Origin: an uncultured Bacteroidota bacterium
GTDB taxonomy: Bacteria; Bacteroidota; Ignavibacteria; UBA10030; UBA6906
DNA length: 64,000 bases
Assembly (NCBI GenBank): GCA_963700635.1
Contig: CAVOYH010000002.1
Span: 32,001 to 96,000 of the forward strand
Direction of reading: 5' to 3'
Shown here: positions 7,661 through 16,190 of the stretch, piece after piece
Numbering within the stretch: the first letter of the stretch is position 1
How the letters are laid out: the number at the start of each line of letters is the position of its first letter
Notes under the pieces: model-generated
What the model was told of the DNA's origin: nothing
The model's input: only the letters and a program-made list of their open reading frames with translations
The model's database searches: none
Translations under genes and position numbers: made by a program

Positions 7661-8362
7661 ATGCTTGATCAGATCTTGACGTGGCTGACTATGGGAATGG
7701 GCGACTCATTTGGGATCGCACTGGTTGCCGCCGTCGGATGGGGCGTTATCAGCATTCTTCTCAGCCCCTGTCATCTCTCGAGCATTCCCCTCGTTATTGG
7801 CTACATCAGCAGTCAGGGGCAGGAAGGGTCGAAACGGCCCTATCTGCTTTCCCTGGTGTTCGCGGTAGGGATTCTAATCACGATCGGTGTGATCGGCGCG
7901 GCCACCGCATCGGTGGGCAGGATGATGGGCGACGTCGGCGTGTGGGGCAACGTTATAGTCGCGGGGGTGTTCTTTGTTGTTGGCCTGTACCTCATGGACG
8001 TCATCAGCCTCTCGTGGGGTGGGATCATCCCCCGGACTTCATTCGCTCGAGGGTGGAAAGGGGCGCTTCTGTTGGGCCTCATTTTTGGCATCGGGCTGGG
8101 TCCCTGCACGTTTGCCTATATGGCGCCAGTGCTCGGCGTCGCTTTCAGCATGGCCTCGACAAGTGTGCTCCGGGCCGTTTCGCTTGTTGCTGCCTTCGGG
8201 TTGGGGCACTGTGCCGTGATCGTGGGAGCCGGAGGCGCGGCCGGAACAGTGCAGAAATATCTGAACTGGACGGAACAGTCGAAGGGTGCAACGTATCTGA
8301 AGCGTGGCGCCGGGGTGCTTGTCATCCTGGCAGGCGTGTACTATATCTACACGGCTTTGTGA
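7661..8362 (+). CDS. ccdA: CcdA/DsbD-type transmembrane electron transporter
   Basis: LSPCHL and GPCT motifs in a hydrophobic protein. Confidence 0.85.
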   Translation: MLDQILTWLTMGMGDSFGIALVAAVGWGVISILLSPCHLSSIPLVIGYISSQGQEGSKRPYLLSLVFAVGILITIGVIGAATASVGRMMGDVGVWGNVIVAGVFFVVGLYLMDVISLSWGGIIPRTSFARGWKGALLLGLIFGIGLGPCTFAYMAPVLGVAFSMASTSVLRAVSLVAAFGLGHCAVIVGAGGAAGTVQKYLNWTEQSKGATYLKRGAGVLVILAGVYYIYTAL

Positions 8363-8488
8363 GGTTCAGTATGCATGCTTGCGTTGAGAGGTGCATGGTT
8401 TGTGAATTCGATCGGCAGGTTTGCGAAAGATGATGATGCCACTCACCTACATCGACCAAGTTATTCCCACATCCGTAAGGACGGAGTC

Positions 8489-8767
8489 ATGAGTGTCCCC
8501 CGAGAACTGATCCCGTGGTATCCTACCATAGAGCAGGACCTTTGCACGAATTGTGGCGTGTGTGTGGATTTCTGCAAACATGGCGTATATGCGTTGGAAG
8601 ATGTCCGGACTGTGGTTTCGGTCCCTTTTAACTGTGTCGTAGGATGCACCGGTTGCGAAGGTCAATGCGCCAGTGGTGCGATCCGACTCCCGGAAATGGA
8701 GCAATTTATCATAACGCCGAGGGAACTTCGCGCGGGGGCCTGCCCCAAGTTTGTGTACCAATGTTGA
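8489..8767 (+). CDS. 4Fe-4S dicluster ferredoxin
   Basis: IPWYPTI, CTNCGVCVDFC and CVVGCTGCEGQC; GGAG before ATG 8489. Confidence 0.88.
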   Translation: MSVPRELIPWYPTIEQDLCTNCGVCVDFCKHGVYALEDVRTVVSVPFNCVVGCTGCEGQCASGAIRLPEMEQFIITPRELRAGACPKFVYQC

Positions 8768-8774
8768 GGTAAAC

Positions 8775-8801
8775 AAAAAACGCCCCGATACCTGGGGCGT
8801 T
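8775..8801. terminator. intrinsic terminator-like hairpin
   Basis: AACGCCCC-GATACCT-GGGGCGTT with an A-tract on the left (U-tract on minus strand). Confidence 0.55.
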
Positions 8802-8812
8802 CGTGTTCTAAT

Positions 8813-8845
8813 CCCGCCATCATCACCGGGCTCGTTGACAATCCG
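8813..8845 (+). repeat. direct repeat copy 1 (33 bp)
   Basis: CCCGCCATCATCACCGGGCTCGTTGAC(A)ATCCG, repeated at 10097-10129 with one mismatch. Confidence 0.95.
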
Positions 8846-8863
8846 ATCTCCCTTCAGTATCAT
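8835..8863 (+). promoter_or_regulatory. sigma70-like promoter for the T9SS cargo gene
   Basis: TTGACA-17 nt-TATCAT; the -35 lies within the direct repeat. Confidence 0.65.
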
Positions 8864-9035
8864 GTGTCATATTGTCCGGGGAAGCCCATTCCCTCGCGGA
8901 TCCGGGAATAATAGTTGTCGTAAACCGCAAAGAATAGTTGTCGTCAAACAGTGGATTGGGAATGATGTTGACCTGAAGGCCTCTATACGGGGGAATATAA
9001 GTGGGCCTCGACACAACGCAAAGGAAAACTCACCG

Positions 9036-10085
9036 ATGAGATACATTGCTATCATTTGTCTGGTACTTTTTGCCAGCGCAGCAGCCATGAGTCAGACCAT
9101 CACGAATACTCTCAAGAACTTCTCCAGGAACGGGGACACATACACGTTTGAAATATGGAGTCAGGCCTCACAGAGTGGCATGGGTACAAATCAGGCATTA
9201 TTTCAAGTGTACATCACCTACGGCGCGTTCACCGTTTCAGGATCGACTGTCACGCTGGAGAGCAAGTTCAGTTCATTTGGTCCTGGCAGTCTGGGGTTGT
9301 GGACCTCGGGGGGCATCCAGGGCTTTCAGTTTTCGTTCGGTGGAAGCGGTCTCCCCGGAATTGAAATCTCGTCTGCCGTGGGGGGCGAGAAGGTTCTTAC
9401 GCTCAGATGCAAGATCATCGATACGACCAAGACCTCAGGTCTTTCTTGGGTAACGGCCAACGGATGGTTCTGGTTGACCAACCTCTGGGCGGGCAGCGAC
9501 AACAGCCCGCTGCCGGTTCAGTTGTCGTCGTTCGCGGTTCAGGTGATCAGTGGTGCTGCGCGCTTGACATGGATCACCACGTCTGAAATTGACAACTACG
9601 GGTTTTGCGTAGAGCGTGGTAACTCGCCGGACAATCTGGCAGATGCCGAGGATGGCTTTGTTCCCGGTCATAACACGACGATTGAGCCGCACGAATACTC
9701 GTGGACAGATAAAAATCCCGTATCATACTACAGGCTGCGCCAAATCGATCTAAACGGGAGCGTCCATTACTCGGATATCGTGTCGACAAGTACTGCCGGG
9801 GTGATACCAGTTCTTGCTGCGCGTGAGTTTGTCCTGATCCAGAACTACCCCAACCCCTTTAACCCTTCAACGACGATCCGCTACGGCTTGCCCAACAGGA
9901 CAGCTGTACAGCTGTCAGTCTACAACACAATCGGGCAGCAGGTATCCATTCTGCAGAATGGGGAACAGGAAGCAGGGTATCATGAGGTCAAGTTCGATGC
10001 GCGAAATCTCCCGAGCGGGGTTTATTTCTATCGGATGCAGGCGGGCGCATTCACAGAGACCAAGAAACTTCTCCTGGTCAGATAG
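9036..10085 (+). CDS. secreted protein with T9SS type A sorting domain
   Basis: Signal peptide MRYIAIICLVLFASAAAMSQ, LPVQLSSF Ig-like module, QNYPNPFNPSTTIRY...SGVYFYRM...KKLLLVR; AAGGA upstream. Confidence 0.92.
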   Translation: MRYIAIICLVLFASAAAMSQTITNTLKNFSRNGDTYTFEIWSQASQSGMGTNQALFQVYITYGAFTVSGSTVTLESKFSSFGPGSLGLWTSGGIQGFQFSFGGSGLPGIEISSAVGGEKVLTLRCKIIDTTKTSGLSWVTANGWFWLTNLWAGSDNSPLPVQLSSFAVQVISGAARLTWITTSEIDNYGFCVERGNSPDNLADAEDGFVPGHNTTIEPHEYSWTDKNPVSYYRLRQIDLNGSVHYSDIVSTSTAGVIPVLAAREFVLIQNYPNPFNPSTTIRYGLPNRTAVQLSVYNTIGQQVSILQNGEQEAGYHEVKFDARNLPSGVYFYRMQAGAFTETKKLLLVR

Positions 10086-10096
10086 TGTATCACGGG

Positions 10097-10129
10097 CCCG
10101 CCATCATCACCGGGCTCGTTGACTATCCG
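10097..10129 (+). repeat. direct repeat copy 2 (33 bp)
   Basis: CCCGCCATCATCACCGGGCTCGTTGAC(T)ATCCG. Confidence 0.95.
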
Positions 10130-10151
10130 CTCACCGTTCCGTGCTATGCGA

Positions 10152-10669
10152 TCATAGCGTCCTCGGGGAGAGGCGTGCGGGGGATAGAGCGGAGGCCTCT
10201 TCGTCGAGAGATGGGGAGGCTGCGTCTTTTGGAGGCAAGCTGTCGATCTTCACTGGAACCGCAAGCCTATCTCCAGATGGCGGATTCCTGAAATCGGAAA
10301 TCCAACTCACGCATTGGTAAAGACAAAGGGGGCTGGTCACGTTAGCACGAAGACACGTGTCGGGCTCGTGGTCGGCGTGCGCCAGGACCATCGGGATGTG
10401 AGCGGACTCAAGTAGATCTTTGAGCCAATACCATCCGGTGGTGGATTCAACGGCAGTCTGGTGTTCGGCGTCAAGGGTGGTGAAATAATCCGGCACAAGC
10501 GGTAGAGAATTAGGAACACGTCTTTGTTTGACGATTGCGCCTGTTTCATCAACAGTAGTGATGTAACAATTATCGCGGTGCAGATCGATACCTGAATAGA
10601 ACACGACAAGCCTCCTTTCGAATTGTTACTCTAAATTGCAACTTTCGAAAGTTCCTTGTTGGTAATATC
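10152..10669 (-). mobile_element. internally deleted IS110-family element abutting an attC site
   Basis: Transposase N-terminus, short left end with AAGGAGG in a hairpin (10605-10669), and a long downstream non-coding segment; left end joins the attC spacer at 10670. Confidence 0.8.
10375..10604 (-). pseudogene. IS110 transposase N-terminal (RuvC-like DEDD) fragment
   Basis: YSGIDLH...AVESTTGWYWLKDLL...VLAH, similarity stops after ~76 aa. Confidence 0.9.
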
Positions 10670-10827
10670 CAGTCGCTCAAGCTGACGTGCGAACCGCAAA
10701 CGCGCCAAAGTCTTGAGAGTTGAGTTACCAACTGAGAACTTACGATGCAACAAGAACTAACGTATCTAAAAAATTAATCCCAACCCGCTGGAGCGTTCGC
10801 ACGCAGCTTAGCTCCAGTCCGTTAGGC
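10670..10827 (+). other. attC site 4, R'' box missing
   Basis: CAGTC GCTCAAGC TGAC GTGCGAAC ... GTTCGCAC GCA GCTTAGC TCCAGTCC GTTAGGC. Confidence 0.9.
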
Positions 10828-10857
10828 AACATATTTGATATTTGAGGATATAAAGTC

Positions 10858-12857
10858 ATGAGATCCATTAAAATTACAATATTTATTTTATCTGATATTA
10901 TTTTGCTTTCCTTTCACTCAGATCAAGGCACAAACGAAGAAACGGGCAATGACTTTTCTGGATATAATCCAGATGAGAAGCCTTGGTTCGCGGCAGAATG
11001 GAGATATTTCTCCTGATGGGAAATGGTTTGTTTATACAATTAGAGTTCCTGATTGGGAAACAAATAGAAGATTTGAAGACATTTATATTACTACTTTAAC
11101 TGGCGGTAAGACAAAGCAGATGACCTTCACAAAAGATAAGAATGAAAGATTCCCCAAATGGTGCAAAGATAGTTCAGTCTTTGCATTTTTATCAAATCGT
11201 TCCGAGGATAAGAACCAGATATATTTTATGCGACCAGATGGAGGTGAAGCATGGCAAGTAACTGATGATAAATTTGGCGTAAGCAGTTATGAATTGAGCA
11301 GTAACGGGAAATATCTTGCCTATCTGGGTGGAAAACCTGAAGAAAGACAAATCTGGGTTATGCCAGGTGAAGGAGGGAGAAGCCGAAAAACTAACAAACC
11401 ATAAAATCCCCGATTAGTTCATATTTGTGGAATCCAAACGGTAAGAAGATCTATTTTGTTGCCTCCGCTCATCTATGGGAAATTGACATTGAGACAAAGG
11501 AAGAAATACGTCTTACAGGGGAAAATGAATATTCGGTTTCAGATGTTATAATTTCGGACGACGGAACGAACATCGCATTTATCGGTTCCTCAAAAACTAG
11601 TGAAGTCTACCTTCTTGACTTAAATACTAATACCATTTCACGATTAACAAATAATTCAGTAGATGAATGGTCACTGAGTTTTTCTCCAGACAGCAAATGG
11701 TTTGCTTTTATTTGTGGAGGCGGTGGGGTATTTGGTGATCCGGGGGGGAAAGTCTACATTATGCCCACAGAAGGAGGAGAACTTAAGAAATTGATGAGTA
11801 ACTTTGACTACGCTGACAACTTAGGCTATTTTTGGGGTGACGATAGCAGGTATATCTATTTCACTTCTCAGGTTGGAGTGGATTATCATCATTTCAGTGT
11901 ATCAATCGATAATGACCAAATAAAACTGATTGCAAAATTTGAGGGTGGTATTCATTTTAGAAAGGATAAAGATTCTGGAAAAATGCTTATTTCCTATTCA
12001 GATCCGGAAAATCCAGCAGACTTATTATTACAGCGAACCCGATAAATTTTAACGACAGAGATAAATGGATAAGACTTACAGATGCAAATCCACAGGTAAA
12101 AGGATTCTTGCTAGGCAAATATGAAACCATAAGGTGGAAAAGCACAGACGGTAGAACCATTGAAGGTCTTCTTATAAAACCGGTAAATTATAGTGAAGAT
12201 AGAAAATATCCCCTGATAGTCGATATACATGGAGGACCCGCATCTGCATCCATCAATAATTTTAATTCTTATATTCACATTTTCGCAGCGAACGATTATG
12301 TTGTTTTTCAGCCAAACTATCGTGGTTCTTCAGGATATGGTGAAAAATTCAAAAAAGAGATTGAAGGAGACTGGTTTGGGCAGTCATTCGATGATATTAT
12401 GACAGGCGTAGATTACCTGATTGAAAGGGAGATAGTTCATCCGGACAGTATGGGTATTATGGGCTGGAGTTTCGGAGGCGACTTGTGTAATGAGGCGTTG
12501 GTATCTACCAACCGGTTCAAGGCAATTTCAACAGGTGCCAGCTCGAATGTACCAAAAAGGTATTTGAATAATGCAAAGACACCGACATTAATACACTGTG
12601 GTGAGAATGACAATGAATAATATAAGTCAAAGTGAAGAATTATATATTGCTTACAAAACATAGGAGTGCCTACAGAATTTATTGTTTATCCTAATACAGG
12701 ACATATGATCGGTGTTGTTGAATATGGAATCGGTAATATGAGATACATGATGGTTAAAATGCAATCAGAATTTTACTGGTTTGAGAAATGGATTAGAGGT
12801 AAAGAAAAAGGATGGATTGACTGTAAAGAAATAATAGAATCCTTGGAAGAAAGATAG
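10858..12857 (+). pseudogene. S9 family peptidase (beta-propeller + alpha/beta hydrolase), fragmented; cassette gene
   Basis: Consecutive fragments 10949..11404, 11425..12045, 12108..12620, 12666..12857 with SPDGK repeats, HGGP, PNYRGSSGYG, GWSFGG; visibly AT-rich; bounded by GTTAGGC and GCCTAAC. Confidence 0.9.
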
Positions 12858-12908
12858 AACCAACAAAAGAATAAGAAATTAATTGAATGGATTATCATTC
12901 AGTAAGAT

Positions 12909-12927
12909 GCCTAACCAGCTTTTAGGC
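12909..12927 (+). other. collapsed attC remnant
   Basis: GCCTAAC-CAGCT-TTTAGGC: R'', spacer and R'-like box with no L boxes; R'' complements GTTAGGC at 10821. Confidence 0.7.
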
Positions 12928-12978
12928 AACCCAATGGATAGGAAGCTATTGACAAGTTTGAACGGGTGATTGAAATTA

Positions 12979-13190
12979 TGTACGTCTTCAGACCATTTTG
13001 GACACTTTGGGCGCAAAGTTAAGAGACAGTTTTTGGCATATCCCGGTTGATGGTAGGTGTGTACGTGTGTAACTGATTGTGCCTTCTCCGCTGTTCAAAC
13101 GTCTGCCGCTTGATCTTTTCCCGCTTCGTTTCGATTTCCTTAGCACGTCCGAAGTAGACATCTGCCGGCGTCAGGTTGTGCAGTGACTTG
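12979..13190 (-). mobile_element. IS481/IS3-like element, 3' remnant with terminal repeat
   Basis: SLHNLTPADVYFGRAKEIETKREKIKRQTFEQRR is a DDE transposase C-terminus; end reads TGTACGTCTTCAGACC on plus strand (TGT terminus). Confidence 0.75.
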
Positions 13191-13329
13191 ATTGCCCCTG
13201 CCTGGAAACGCTCGTCACGAACTTCAGTGCGTCGGATCTTCGGGAGCATCGGGTAGACACCTTTCGACGGGTACCGCTTTCGTCGTGGAAGTACAGGTAG
13301 TAGTAACGGCCACGTTTGGTCAGGAACAT
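13190..13329 (-). pseudogene. N-terminal remnant of a phage-type tyrosine integrase (not in ORF track)
   Basis: MFLTKRGRYYYLYFHDESGTRRKVSTRCSRRSDALKFV resembles an integrase arm-binding N-terminus; starts 150 nt downstream of the tRNA and is cut by the IS remnant. Confidence 0.65.
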
Positions 13330-13411
13330 GGTTCACCCTGTGGATTGGGTGAGCAGGGGAGTGGTTACTCGACTGGTTACTCTTGCGGGTCACCTTGAAG
13401 CGCACGGACAT

Positions 13412-13439
13412 AAAAAAAGTGCGTGTGGCGAGCACGCAC
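13412..13439 (-). terminator. intrinsic terminator after tRNA-Ser
   Basis: GTGCGTG/CACGCAC stem followed by T7 on the minus strand. Confidence 0.75.
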
Positions 13440-13478
13440 GTTTTGAAAACTGCCTAATACCGATCAATTTCGGTAGGG

Positions 13479-13567
13479 CGGAGGGGGAGAGATTCGAACT
13501 CTCGGTAGAGTGTAAACCCTACGACGGTTTAGCAAACCGTTGGTTTCGGCCACTCACCCACCCCTCC
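13479..13567 (-). tRNA. tRNA-Ser(GCT)
   Basis: GGAGGGG/CCCCTCC acceptor, ACGGT-TTGCTAA-ACCGT anticodon arm, long variable arm, GTTCGAATC; no encoded CCA. Confidence 0.97.
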
Positions 13568-13715
13568 ATCATCAAAAAGGGCACTGAAGTGCGCAGAATA
13601 GATACAGAAGAGCAATCCGCCCTCTTCTGAGTACAACGCGCCGATAAGATAACGAAAAATTCACCCCCCCGCAAGACCACTACTTGATTCTTCACTTCCT
13701 TTTTACCATTTTTTT

Positions 13716-16190
13716 ATGATTATGCCGGATACTATAGTTAACCACCCGGCTGCAAAGCAGGCTTATGATGACGACAGGGGAGTACACACCGTGAGGAGCA
13801 AACGACGTTGGCTGTGTTTCAGCATGCTCGTTCTTTTCACCGTGCTGGGTGCCCACGCGCAATCGCAGGATCAACTCCGCCAGCAGGCGGAATCACGCCT
13901 CCGCCAGATGTCCCCCACCGAAATCGAACAAGCCCTCAAACAGTACGGTATGACACTCGATGAGGCCGTCCAGAAAGCACAAACACTGGGCATATCACTC
14001 CAGGACTACCTCGGAAAAGCCAGCAGCACCACGCAGGAACGCACAGAACAACTGCTCGTCGATCCCCGCCTGAACTGGCAGGGAATGGCAACTGCCAAGA
14101 AGACTCTCGACAGCGCCCTTGTTGCCAAGATCCTCCCGGCCATCACCGCGCCTGTGGATGTGCCCGGCTTTAAAGGACGGCTGGGCATCGGAGAAAATAT
14201 CCGACCCTTCGGCTATGACGTGTTCCAGTACCCGGCGACTACGTTTCTCCCGTCTCTGAGCGTGGCAACGCCACCATCGTACGTGCTCGGGGCCGGTGAC
14301 GAACTGGTGGTTTCCGTGTGGGGCGAAACACAACTTTCACACCGGGTCCAGGTGAACAGGGAAGGGAATATCGTCATACCCGACGTGGGACCCGTGGCAG
14401 CCATCGGACAAACGATAGAGAAGTTCCGGGACCGGCTCCAACGCCGGATGTCAGGCGTGTATTCAAGTCTGGCCGGCTCACCCGGCCGGACCCGTTCGTA
14501 TCTGGATGTCTCCCTCGGAAAAATGAAGACCATCCAGGTGTTCGTCCTCGGCGAAGTCCAGAAACCAGGCGGATACCAGCTCTCGTCCATGTCATCCGCC
14601 CTGCACGCTCTCTATCTGGCCGGCGGACCGACCGTGGACGGGACACTCCGGAATGTTCAGGTGCTCAGACGCGGGGAACCCGCCCTGAACGTTGATGTGT
14701 ATTCCTTCGTCCTCCTGGGCGACCGGTCCAGCGATCAACCCCTGCAGGACGGAGACATCGTCCTCGTAAAACCTGCCGGGAAACGGGCCGCCGTGGTCGG
14801 TACCGTGCTGCGCCCGGCAATCTACGAGGTGAAGCCGGGAGAAAATCTCGGCGCACTGATCGGCCTCGCAGGCGGGCCCCGATTTGATGCCCATCTGGAA
14901 CGTGTGCATATCGAACGTATCGTGCCCTTTGACCGACGCAGAGAATATAGCCGGGACATCTTGGATTTTGATGTGCACTTCCGGAACGAAGGCGATCTCC
15001 TGACAGATACCACCGTTGTAGAGGATGGTGATGTCGTCACGTTCCACGAAATTCTCTACCTCCACGAGAATCGCGTCGTGATCATCGGGAATGTCAACAA
15101 GCCGGGTCCGTTTGAATTCCGTGAGGGTATGCGCGTGGCAGATCTTATCATGGCCGCCGATAGCCTCCGGCTCGCGAGCTTTGCCGAGTGGGCAACGCTC
15201 TTTCGCACATTGCCAAACCTGCGCAGGGAAGTGATCGGGTTTAGTCCGCGTATGGCTCTGCAGGGAGACCCCCACGAGAATCTGTTGCTGCGGAATGAAG
15301 ATAGTGTTGTGGTGTATTCCTTCAACCAGTTCTATCCCGGTGAAGAAGTGTCTGTGTTCGGTGCAGTGAGGAAGCCGGGGAATTACCCGCGCCACGATAG
15401 CATGACCGTCTCTGATCTGGTCGTGATGGCAGGTGGGCTTGTGGATGGCGCAACCACAACGGGATGGGAGTTATCGCGCCTGGACACTTCAGACATCAAA
15501 ACGTATACGCAAATGATCAAGGTGGAAGGCGATCAGGACTACTGGCGGCACGACGGGGGGAAGGGTGTGCACCTCCAGGATTATGATGTGCTGACGGTTC
15601 CGTATGATCCGCGGTTTTCGACTCCGAAATTTATCCGTGTCAGCGGCTATGTGATGTATCCCGGTACCTACACAATACAATATGAGGGTGAGCGTATCGC
15701 GGATATTTTCAGGCGCGCCGGAGGGCTCCGTCCGGGGGCCTATCTGGAAGGATCACGGCTGGTCCGCAAGTTCAACAACGCCGGACTCGTGCCCCTGGAT
15801 TTCCGGAAAGCTATGGAGCGCGAGAATTCGCGGGACAATGTGGTGGTCTATGACGGTGACTCCATCAATGTGGCATTTACCGAAGACATGATCTATGTGA
15901 GCGGGGAAGTCTATGTGCCTTCGCCCGTGCTGTATGAAGAAGGCGCCGGGCTGAGCTACTATATAAGGCAGGCAGGCGGATACAAGGAAGAGGCGGAGAA
16001 AGGGAACACCGTGGTGTTCCTCCCCGGCGGGAAAAAATGGGATAGCGGAGAGATCCTTCCGGGAAGCACGATCCTCGTGCCAAGGGAGCTCGACAAACCG
16101 GACAATACGCTCCCAGTTCTCCGTGACCTGGCGACCATTCTTGCCAGTCTGGCGGCAATCACCGTCGCCCTCGTTCAGGTCACCAAGTAA
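13716..16190 (+). CDS. SLBB-repeat polysaccharide export protein (Wza/KpsD-like); start may be further downstream
   Basis: PFGYDVF, YVLGAGDEL, repeated V.GEV.KPG.Y SLBB motifs. Confidence 0.92.
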   Translation: MIMPDTIVNHPAAKQAYDDDRGVHTVRSKRRWLCFSMLVLFTVLGAHAQSQDQLRQQAESRLRQMSPTEIEQALKQYGMTLDEAVQKAQTLGISLQDYLGKASSTTQERTEQLLVDPRLNWQGMATAKKTLDSALVAKILPAITAPVDVPGFKGRLGIGENIRPFGYDVFQYPATTFLPSLSVATPPSYVLGAGDELVVSVWGETQLSHRVQVNREGNIVIPDVGPVAAIGQTIEKFRDRLQRRMSGVYSSLAGSPGRTRSYLDVSLGKMKTIQVFVLGEVQKPGGYQLSSMSSALHALYLAGGPTVDGTLRNVQVLRRGEPALNVDVYSFVLLGDRSSDQPLQDGDIVLVKPAGKRAAVVGTVLRPAIYEVKPGENLGALIGLAGGPRFDAHLERVHIERIVPFDRRREYSRDILDFDVHFRNEGDLLTDTTVVEDGDVVTFHEILYLHENRVVIIGNVNKPGPFEFREGMRVADLIMAADSLRLASFAEWATLFRTLPNLRREVIGFSPRMALQGDPHENLLLRNEDSVVVYSFNQFYPGEEVSVFGAVRKPGNYPRHDSMTVSDLVVMAGGLVDGATTTGWELSRLDTSDIKTYTQMIKVEGDQDYWRHDGGKGVHLQDYDVLTVPYDPRFSTPKFIRVSGYVMYPGTYTIQYEGERIADIFRRAGGLRPGAYLEGSRLVRKFNNAGLVPLDFRKAMERENSRDNVVVYDGDSINVAFTEDMIYVSGEVYVPSPVLYEEGAGLSYYIRQAGGYKEEAEKGNTVVFLPGGKKWDSGEILPGSTILVPRELDKPDNTLPVLRDLATILASLAAITVALVQVTK

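Follow-up and report, generated by a model that had tools for sequence, protein, structure and literature searches.

Can a truncated IS110-family gene at an attC site still be accompanied by the RNA that would guide such an element to its target? The question is raised by positions 10152-10827 of the window, that is, the whole 64,000-nucleotide stretch that was analysed here (G000:C2:32001-96000). An initial annotation of this DNA had described an RNA-guided, attC-targeting IS110-family element, now non-autonomous, that keeps a candidate bridge or seek RNA. We have compared the locus with full-length relatives of the element, with its own genome and with public sequencing runs. Our main conclusion, which we hold with a probability of about 0.9, is that positions 10374-10669 on the minus strand are an immobile, non-functional 5' stub of an attC-targeting IS1111-type (IS110-family) insertion sequence (IS). 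The stretch that had been taken for a seek or bridge RNA is a composite of unrelated DNA, made up of a leader repeat of the host genus, the right end of an IS3 element and 34 bases (Table 1).

Table 1. Features around the attC site, in window coordinates
Feature	Positions	Strand	Evidence
Host-lineage repeat, leader-like	10097..10225	+	Own-genome and same-genus matches
IS3-family right-end fragment	10245..10339 (left limit 10232-10245)	+	Profile, alignment, BLAST
34 bases that separate IS3 end and IS1111-type stub	10340..10373	.	X1 contig bridges at about 96% identity
DEDD transposase gene, first 77 codons, GTG start 10602-10604	10374..10604	-	Profile and protein matches
Left end of IS1111-type element, 65 nt	10605..10669	-	Model positions 1-~80 of 17-copy profile
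attC without R'' box	10670..10827	+	Sequence reading, attC profile, contig of run X3
Low-GC (about 37%) cassette, S9 prolyl-oligopeptidase-type protein, five open frames	10858..12857	+	ORFs, Pfam, GC
GCCTAAC, 6 bases, TTAGGC	12910..12929	+	Sequence reading; repeat families D5, I22
tRNA-Ser(GCT)	13476..13568	-	ARAGORN; Rfam tRNA E 1.5e-10

The attC site and its junction with the insertion sequence

The attC site had been described as complete except for its R'' box, and this description holds. A profile of the unoccupied sites in the relatives' arrays has a single match in the genome, at 10670-10827 (E 2e-6); a second attC site was not found in the genome with this profile. The site is composed of the spacer CAGTC (10670-10674), the L'' box (10675-10694), a variable stretch, the L' box (10795-10812) and the R' box GTTAGGC (10821-10827), which conforms to GTTRRRY. 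When the bottom strand is folded as DNA, 10675-10694 pairs with 10795-10812, and single unpaired bases remain on the L'' arm, which has two extra bases. Canonical attC sites have extrahelical G and T bases in their bottom strand. The minimum free energy of the fold is -24.9 kcal/mol, with a z of only -1.8.

At the junction, ...GAGCGACTG/GATATTACC, the IS terminus is found where an R'' box (RYYYAAC) is expected. The left end adjoins the CAGTC spacer exactly at the R'' position, and the element points in the direction opposite to the cassette, as had been read from the letters. In the relatives R'' lies on the far side of the IS, and this side is lost in the window. Taken as a unit, the attC site and the IS left end are 81% identical to the relative locus L004.

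Contigs from public sequencing runs cover parts of this region. No run contains a fraction of more than 0.22 of the sampled words, and the support from runs X1-X4 within 9900-11100 is limited to the parts with contig cover. The X2 contig covers 10607-10815 and bridges the junction at 10669/10670. In run X3 an independent contig shares the downstream cassette from 10822 on and has other sequence before it; this break at 10821/10822 is the G/TT crossover of R' and thus marks a cassette boundary. Run X1 carries the attC site up to 10825, followed by different sequence.

A 296-nucleotide stub of an IS1111-type element

The 296 nucleotides of the stub comprise the left end and the first 77 codons of the transposase gene. 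When 17 full IS copies are combined into a DNA profile, model positions 1-313 of 1378 align with the window from 10669 to 10374 (E 6.7e-56), and no second match in the window is better than E 0.8. The left-end words named in the initial annotation, GATATTACCAAC, AAGGAGG (10611-10617) and GTG (10602-10604), are all present at their places. Within the left end we find the terminal GATATTA, a subterminal inverted repeat at 10652-10662, set 7 nt in from the stub terminus, and AAGGAGG as the Shine-Dalgarno sequence. The same left terminus is found in all 17 full-length relatives and, by pattern, in 55 of 80 metagenome loci.

The open reading frame on the minus strand (10152-10604) encodes 150 amino acids, with a GTG start and AAGGAGG 7 nt upstream. 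Residues 1-79 are up to 84% identical to full-length relatives of 333-335 aa. The Pfam domain PF01548 matches residues 5-76 with E 1e-3 and 19.4 bits, which is under the 29-bit cut-off; the match spans profile positions 2-77 of 155 and hence half of the domain is present in the stub. The same domain reaches 56.3 bits in the relative P0002, which also contains Transposase_20 (PF02371) at 65.5 bits, a domain that Pfam does not find in the window ORF. In a search for longer proteins we obtained 20 full-length relatives, with lengths of 251-377 aa, and these contain both PF01548 and PF02371. In the protein alignment the similarity between the ORF and its relatives ends past residue 77 (...VLAHA), and protein searches gave no homologues for the last 73 residues (78-150). 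An apparent match of the locus L153 to residues 80-133 was a spurious extension and was rejected. The transposase had been thought to stop after about 76 aa; in fact the frame runs on to 150 aa through unrelated DNA.

The other end of the element is missing. Neither a right end nor a right subterminal repeat (TTCCTTTTTAA-type) was found with the IS profile in the window or in the genome. In the whole 4.2-Mb genome the stub is the single match to this profile, the protein search gave one partial match, and a full-length IS1111-type copy is not present. Because the right end is missing, the stub is not a non-autonomous element either, and the initial annotation has to be corrected on this point: what is left is an immobile stub.

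Relatives of the element occupy one position in attC sites

A scan of one genome per species yielded 33 loci, mostly in Ignavibacteriota and Bacteroidota assemblies. Among these are 17 unique insertions with both ends. The left flank ends in ...CTG in all 17, and the right flank reads GTTAGG, except for one GTTATG and one GTTAGA. Just before the left junction the L'' word CAG[CG]TTGA is present in 14 of the 17, while the other three have a variant word or an inserted small hairpin. In the same arrays 37 unoccupied attC ends read ...GAGnnnCTGGTTAGG, and all of them are oriented as the IS gene. Comparison of the occupied flanks with these empty sites places the IS between R'' and the spacer. TG is shared at both IS junctions and there is no target duplication. 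A comparison of the flanks of homologues had been proposed as a check, and it gave a clear answer: all 17 unique full-length copies share one attC position and one orientation, and the stub in the window has this position and orientation as well. In the left flanks of the loci L016, L123, L132, L139 and L141 a small GC-rich hairpin lies between CAGCTTG and GAGnnnCTG words, and these sites are still occupied by the IS.

The metagenome loci agree with this picture at their left junctions. Of 80 such loci, 55 have a recognisable left end and 25 have none by pattern; 53 of the 55 have a flank of at least 20 nt. Forty-eight of these 53 flanks end in CTG and 40 contain the L'' word. Since the alignment A2 began with the 150-aa stub, the metagenome loci end about 30 nt past the stop codon of the relatives, and the junction counts concern left junctions.

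The non-coding region of full-length copies

Full copies are 1364-1405 nt long and consist of a 65-nt left end, a gene of 333-335 codons, about 330 nt of non-coding DNA and the right end. Their 11-base subterminal inverted repeats lie 7 nt inside the left terminus and 3-4 nt inside the right one. Such subterminal repeats are given as marks of the IS1111 group in passages of PMC11187229 and PMC11208160.

The non-coding region of the relatives is conserved and foldable, with 26 consensus pairs, of which 8 show double changes. It contains four words that track DNA sites. Word 1 is R''-like, overlaps the stop codon and matches the complement of the right flank at 5-8 of 8 positions (18 sites). Where word 1 is unusual it follows the R'' box that is occupied: L028 has TTCTAAC at GTTAGAA and L005 has CCCTAAC at GTTAGGG. 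Word 2 is formed by the bases that precede the conserved TGGATTGGGAAG, which match the last 4-7 of the 9 left-flank bases. Word 3 is the complement of the left end over its first 10 nt, at 7-10 of 10 positions. Word 4 repeats the final 6 nt of the right end without change at 17 of 18 sites, and in 9 of 10 variants, with four different right-end words. In L003-L028 the stop codon lies inside the R''-like GCCTAAC word, about 45 nt before the conserved TGGATTGGGAAG, and thus the presumed guide for the right target overlaps the end of the coding sequence. Folding of the downstream region and comparison of its loop bases with the target had been suggested; in the relatives this region is structured and has words that track both target and donor sites. 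From these correspondences we infer that the region resembles a seek or bridge RNA with a target part and a donor part, and the relatives appear to use RNA-guided DEDD recombination.

One relative is itself a deletion derivative. At L029:2936-3674, in a Chitinophagaceae assembly that also holds the full copy L003, model positions 1-326 are joined to 984-1375. This copy retains the left end, the non-coding RNA region (E 3.6e-17 with the covariance model R1 described below) and the right end, and it sits at an attC site. Its breakpoint at model position 326 is near position 313, where the stub in the window ends. Judged by their sequence, deletion copies of the L029 type would be candidate natural mini-elements that could be mobilised in trans.

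Search for the RNA region in the window

Does the window contain a counterpart of this region? Eleven distinct non-coding regions went into the covariance model R1, which has 170 positions and 26 pairs; it amounts to only 2.74 effective sequences, and its E-values are rough. As a positive control R1 gave 10 matches in 9 of 14 held-out loci with E 1e-5 to 3e-41, and among these loci are the deletion copy L029 and a relative with 45% identity, L030. With filters off, R1 gave 10 matches over 8000-14000, all with E 1.2-9.2 and none in 10152-10373, and over the genome it gave nothing. With nhmmer at maximum sensitivity the non-coding region of the family was found neither in 10152-10373 nor elsewhere in the window. 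An Rfam scan of 8000-14000 (E<=1) picked up the tRNA and, on the other strand, a plastid model that overlaps it; there was no further match, and none in 10152-10373.

The candidate guide words do exist: CAAGCTG is present at 10236-10242 and again at 10678-10684, and GCCTA at 10265-10269. As guide matches they do not stand. The segment 10152-10330, taken on both strands, has 7 7-mers in common with the attC site. Shuffled sequences share a mean of 3.0 and 8% of 2000 shuffles reach 7, while random host segments share a mean of 2.8 and 6% of them reach 7. The words are thus at chance level, and they lie on the strand opposite to the transposase.

The disputed segment is a composite

The leftmost piece belongs to the host lineage. 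Positions 10097-10169 are 81% identical to window positions 8813-8882, which lie upstream of the gene 9037-10085 for a cargo protein of the type IX secretion system (T9SS; Por_Secre_tail). The motif at 10154-10225 is found again in the own genome at C1:399305-399379 (L155:506-580), ahead of a gene for a secreted protein, and in 4 of 5 genomes of the same genus; loci with the motif are L050, L051, L052, L053, L056 and L058. It is laid out as a promoter-like TTGAC word, about 45 nt, a conserved stretch, a 12-bp hairpin and a T-rich run. A CCTC/GAGG mini-hairpin is also part of this genus-specific motif, which precedes genes for secreted or T9SS-cargo proteins. No IS110-family gene lies near the copies in the own genome. 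The piece 10097-10225 has the look of a leader whose downstream gene has been lost, and the motif at 10154-10225, for which Rfam gave no match, may be an undescribed leader or attenuator.

The second piece is the right end of an IS3-family element of 1243 bp, which has three copies in the genome and is also present in the genome G008. It contains the last codons of an rve-type transposase, the stop codon and the terminal repeat ending in ...GGTCA. An nhmmer profile of the three own-genome copies matches 10245-10339 up to the last model position (E 3.8e-4). In an alignment with five IS3 copies all sequences end at ...GGTCA, and BLAST against G008 gave an E of about 5e-4 at the stop codon of an rve_3 ORF, which itself is identified with E 1.6e-25. 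These scores are modest, but the assignment is convincing, mainly because the alignment stops exactly at the terminus and shares the stop codon. A further right-end fragment of the same IS3-family element is found at 8733-8770 on the minus strand, and it and the fragment at 10245-10339 on the plus strand face outward. The two right ends bracket the T9SS-cargo gene together with the 70-nt repeats at 8813-8882 and 10097-10169, and a ferredoxin-like ORF (8375-8767) runs into the left fragment.

The third piece, the 34 bases at 10340-10373, has no match to the IS profile, to the loci of the relatives or elsewhere in the genome. When the relatives' loci were searched for DNA resembling 10086-10400, only the host motif and the edge of the transposase were matched. 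Run X1 has a 422-nt contig that differs from the window at 11 places over 10187-10476 and bridges the junctions at 10339/10340 and 10373/10374. Because this contig spans all four pieces, the order of host motif, IS3 end, 34 nt and IS stub is real, in a population that is about 4% diverged. The X1 contig possibly comes from a population near the source of the window, and hence its support is not fully independent.

These results bear on the reading with which we began, that an IS110-family derivative without its own transposase keeps a seek or bridge RNA in 10152-10330 and could be guided to attC if a transposase were supplied. The stub does sit at the canonical attC position of the family, the RNA-keeping deletion derivative L029 shows that such a scenario occurs in nature, and the number of short words shared with attC, 7, is a little higher than the roughly 3 that are expected. 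Against this, nhmmer and R1 find no non-coding region of the family at their most sensitive settings, the right end, the right subterminal repeat and a full-length copy are all absent, a host repeat and an IS3 right end, both read against the direction of the transposase, explain the segment, and the shared words are no more than chance would give. We therefore consider a retained guide RNA very improbable. The roughly 200 nt that had been treated as one non-coding unit are a composite, and 10152-10330 is not conserved downstream of related transposases, a result that the initial annotation had named beforehand as speaking against its reading. Family and target of the element were recognised correctly; the retained RNA and the mobility are what had to be given up.

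The stub might also have been kept for a new use, either as a truncated DEDD N-domain protein made from the 150-aa chimeric ORF or as an outward signal in the left end that acts on neighbouring genes. The 150 open codons with AAGGAGG 7 nt upstream would fit this idea, and the composite arrangement persists in run X1 at about 96% identity. However, residues 78-150 come from reading the IS3 end and the host leader in the reverse direction and are without homologues, the chimeric ORF turned up neither a second copy nor a conserved relative, and 96% persistence is what neutral debris is expected to show. A new function has a slim chance at best, and we keep to the reading as a non-functional stub.

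The surrounding cassette and the tRNA gene

Over 10.5-13 kb the GC content falls from about 55% to about 37%. The cassette downstream of the attC site lies in this block and its five frames (10858-11016, 10949-11404, 11425-12045, 12108-12620 and 12666-12857) contain the domains PD40, DPPIV_N and Peptidase_S9. Near-identical pieces of the 5' part of this S9 cassette occur in runs X3 and X4 in other contexts. At the 3' end of the peptidase cassette the short pair of R-like boxes at 12910-12929 looks like a collapsed or minimal attC, with just its two R boxes left, or like the scar of a recombination event. For the ORF pieces at 13019-13435 Pfam and PHROGs gave no match, and their counterpart beside tRNA-Ser in the genome G003 is also without a Pfam family; the pieces may be the C-terminus of a transposase and the N-terminus of an integrase. 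An integron integrase above the TIGR02249 cut-off was not found in the genome (best 83 bits against 265). The host genome is T9SS-bearing (FCB-type), and its array is down to one attC site.

The tRNA-Ser(GCT) gene forms the right bound of the foreign, decayed segment. In G003, which belongs to the same genus, the orthologous tRNA-Ser is followed by a 5.5-kb segment (L163, G003:C81:37000-42951) that contains HamA-like, Fic and T9SS-cargo genes and ends in a 68-nt repeat of the 3' part of the tRNA. This segment with its tRNA repeat identifies tRNA-Ser as an integration hot spot in the genus. A repeat of the tRNA-Ser 3' part that would mark the far boundary of an island was found neither in the window nor in its genome.

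The change in composition raises the question whether the junctions are assembly artefacts, with a low-GC contig of mobile elements misjoined into a high-GC metagenome-assembled genome. The assembly has 6 contigs and an estimated contamination of 6.73%, and together with the fall in GC these values are what such an error might produce. However, the junctions are spanned by contigs from further public runs (X1, with about 96% identity, for 10187-10476; X2 for 10607-10815), and the 238-kb contig that contains the low-GC block has host-like sequence and a tRNA to either side of it. We give a misassembly only a very small chance and treat the junctions as genuine.

Discussion

How could the locus have come about? 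Our reading of the stub as a remnant suggests that the attC site once received a full element, about 1.37 kb long, which went in between R'' and the spacer. The insertion would have occurred by RNA-guided DEDD recombination, as the full-length relatives appear to do it. Later rearrangements, probably including the arrival of the IS3-family element whose right end lies at about 10245-10339, would then have taken away about 1.07 kb of the IS: the greater part of the transposase gene, the non-coding RNA region behind it and the right end. R'' and the sequence on its far side would have gone as well. The stub, the orphan attC site and the frameshifted peptidase cassette are debris in a decayed foreign segment beside tRNA-Ser. 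We infer the order of these events and the completeness of the ancestral copy; for 10340-10373 neither the IS profile nor the loci of the relatives nor the rest of the genome offers a match. Passages of PMC11089894 describe IS110/IS1111 and IS3 transposases as known in environmental cassette arrays.

The stub can be seen as the scar of an attC-targeting IS that once invaded a cassette, which later decayed in a tRNA-linked foreign segment. The locus also shows that an open frame and some 200 apparently non-coding bases beside a truncated IS110-family gene are no evidence for a retained guide RNA. The relatives offer more than the stub itself. With about 70 junctions and 37 empty sites from environmental arrays of the FCB type they form a natural data set in which guide words can be set against occupied sites, and this data set could serve work on the programming of seek and bridge RNAs or on the decay of integron arrays.

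Elements that target attC sites have reportedly been brought together as the 'IS1111-attC group' by Tetu and Holmes in 2008 and by Post and Hall in 2009. The relatives described here are like this group in their subterminal repeats and in the one fixed position and orientation at the attC end. Unlike the members of the group, the window holds only the first 296 nt of an element, and unlike the elements hosted by Proteobacteria, the relatives are found in Ignavibacteriota and Bacteroidota assemblies. ISKpn4, ISPst6 and ISPa25 target one attC end, with a seekRNA that derives from the downstream region, as stated in passages of PMC11187229. Hence attC-targeting IS1111 elements and seekRNAs are already in print (PMC11187229). 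Compared by description, our relatives are like these three in having DEDD and Transposase_20 domains and a long downstream non-coding region. None of the literature matches listed deals with elements of this kind in Ignavibacteriota or Bacteroidota. Against 72,556 plasmids the highest tblastn identity is 35.7%, and since identity to plasmid-borne relatives does not exceed about 36%, a separate origin of attC targeting from that of the proteobacterial ISKpn4/ISPst6 group is possible. We tentatively propose, and give it a little less than an even chance, that the cassette arrays of Ignavibacteriota and Bacteroidota harbour a separate clade of IS1111-like elements that target attC and have a downstream RNA of the two-loop, bridge type.

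In the relatives the non-coding region is like the bridge RNA of IS110 and IS621 in that it has two internal-loop-like regions, one with words for the target flanks and the other with words for both ends of the element. Together with the TG shared at both junctions of the relatives, without duplication, these regions resemble the loops for target and donor binding and the core that passages of PMC11208160 describe. There is a difference in the position of the RNA region, which follows the gene in the relatives and precedes it in IS621. For the IS1111 group, passages of the same paper place the RNA region in the right end, after the gene (PMC11208160). None of these bridge-RNA-like parts of the relatives is found in the window.

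The attC site and cassette without an integron integrase in the genome resemble remnants of the CALIN type. Two or more attC sites are usually required for this label. The window differs from CALIN in having a single attC site without R'' and the collapsed pair of R''- and R'-like boxes at 12910-12929. Degenerate 'footprints' of IS1111-attC elements are said to lie at the ends of Pseudomonas cassette arrays, as reported by Tetu and Holmes in 2008. Like these footprints, the stub is a decayed piece of an attC-targeting IS at an attC site, at the edge of a cassette remnant. Unlike them, it belongs to a T9SS-bearing host of the FCB type and to an array of one attC site.
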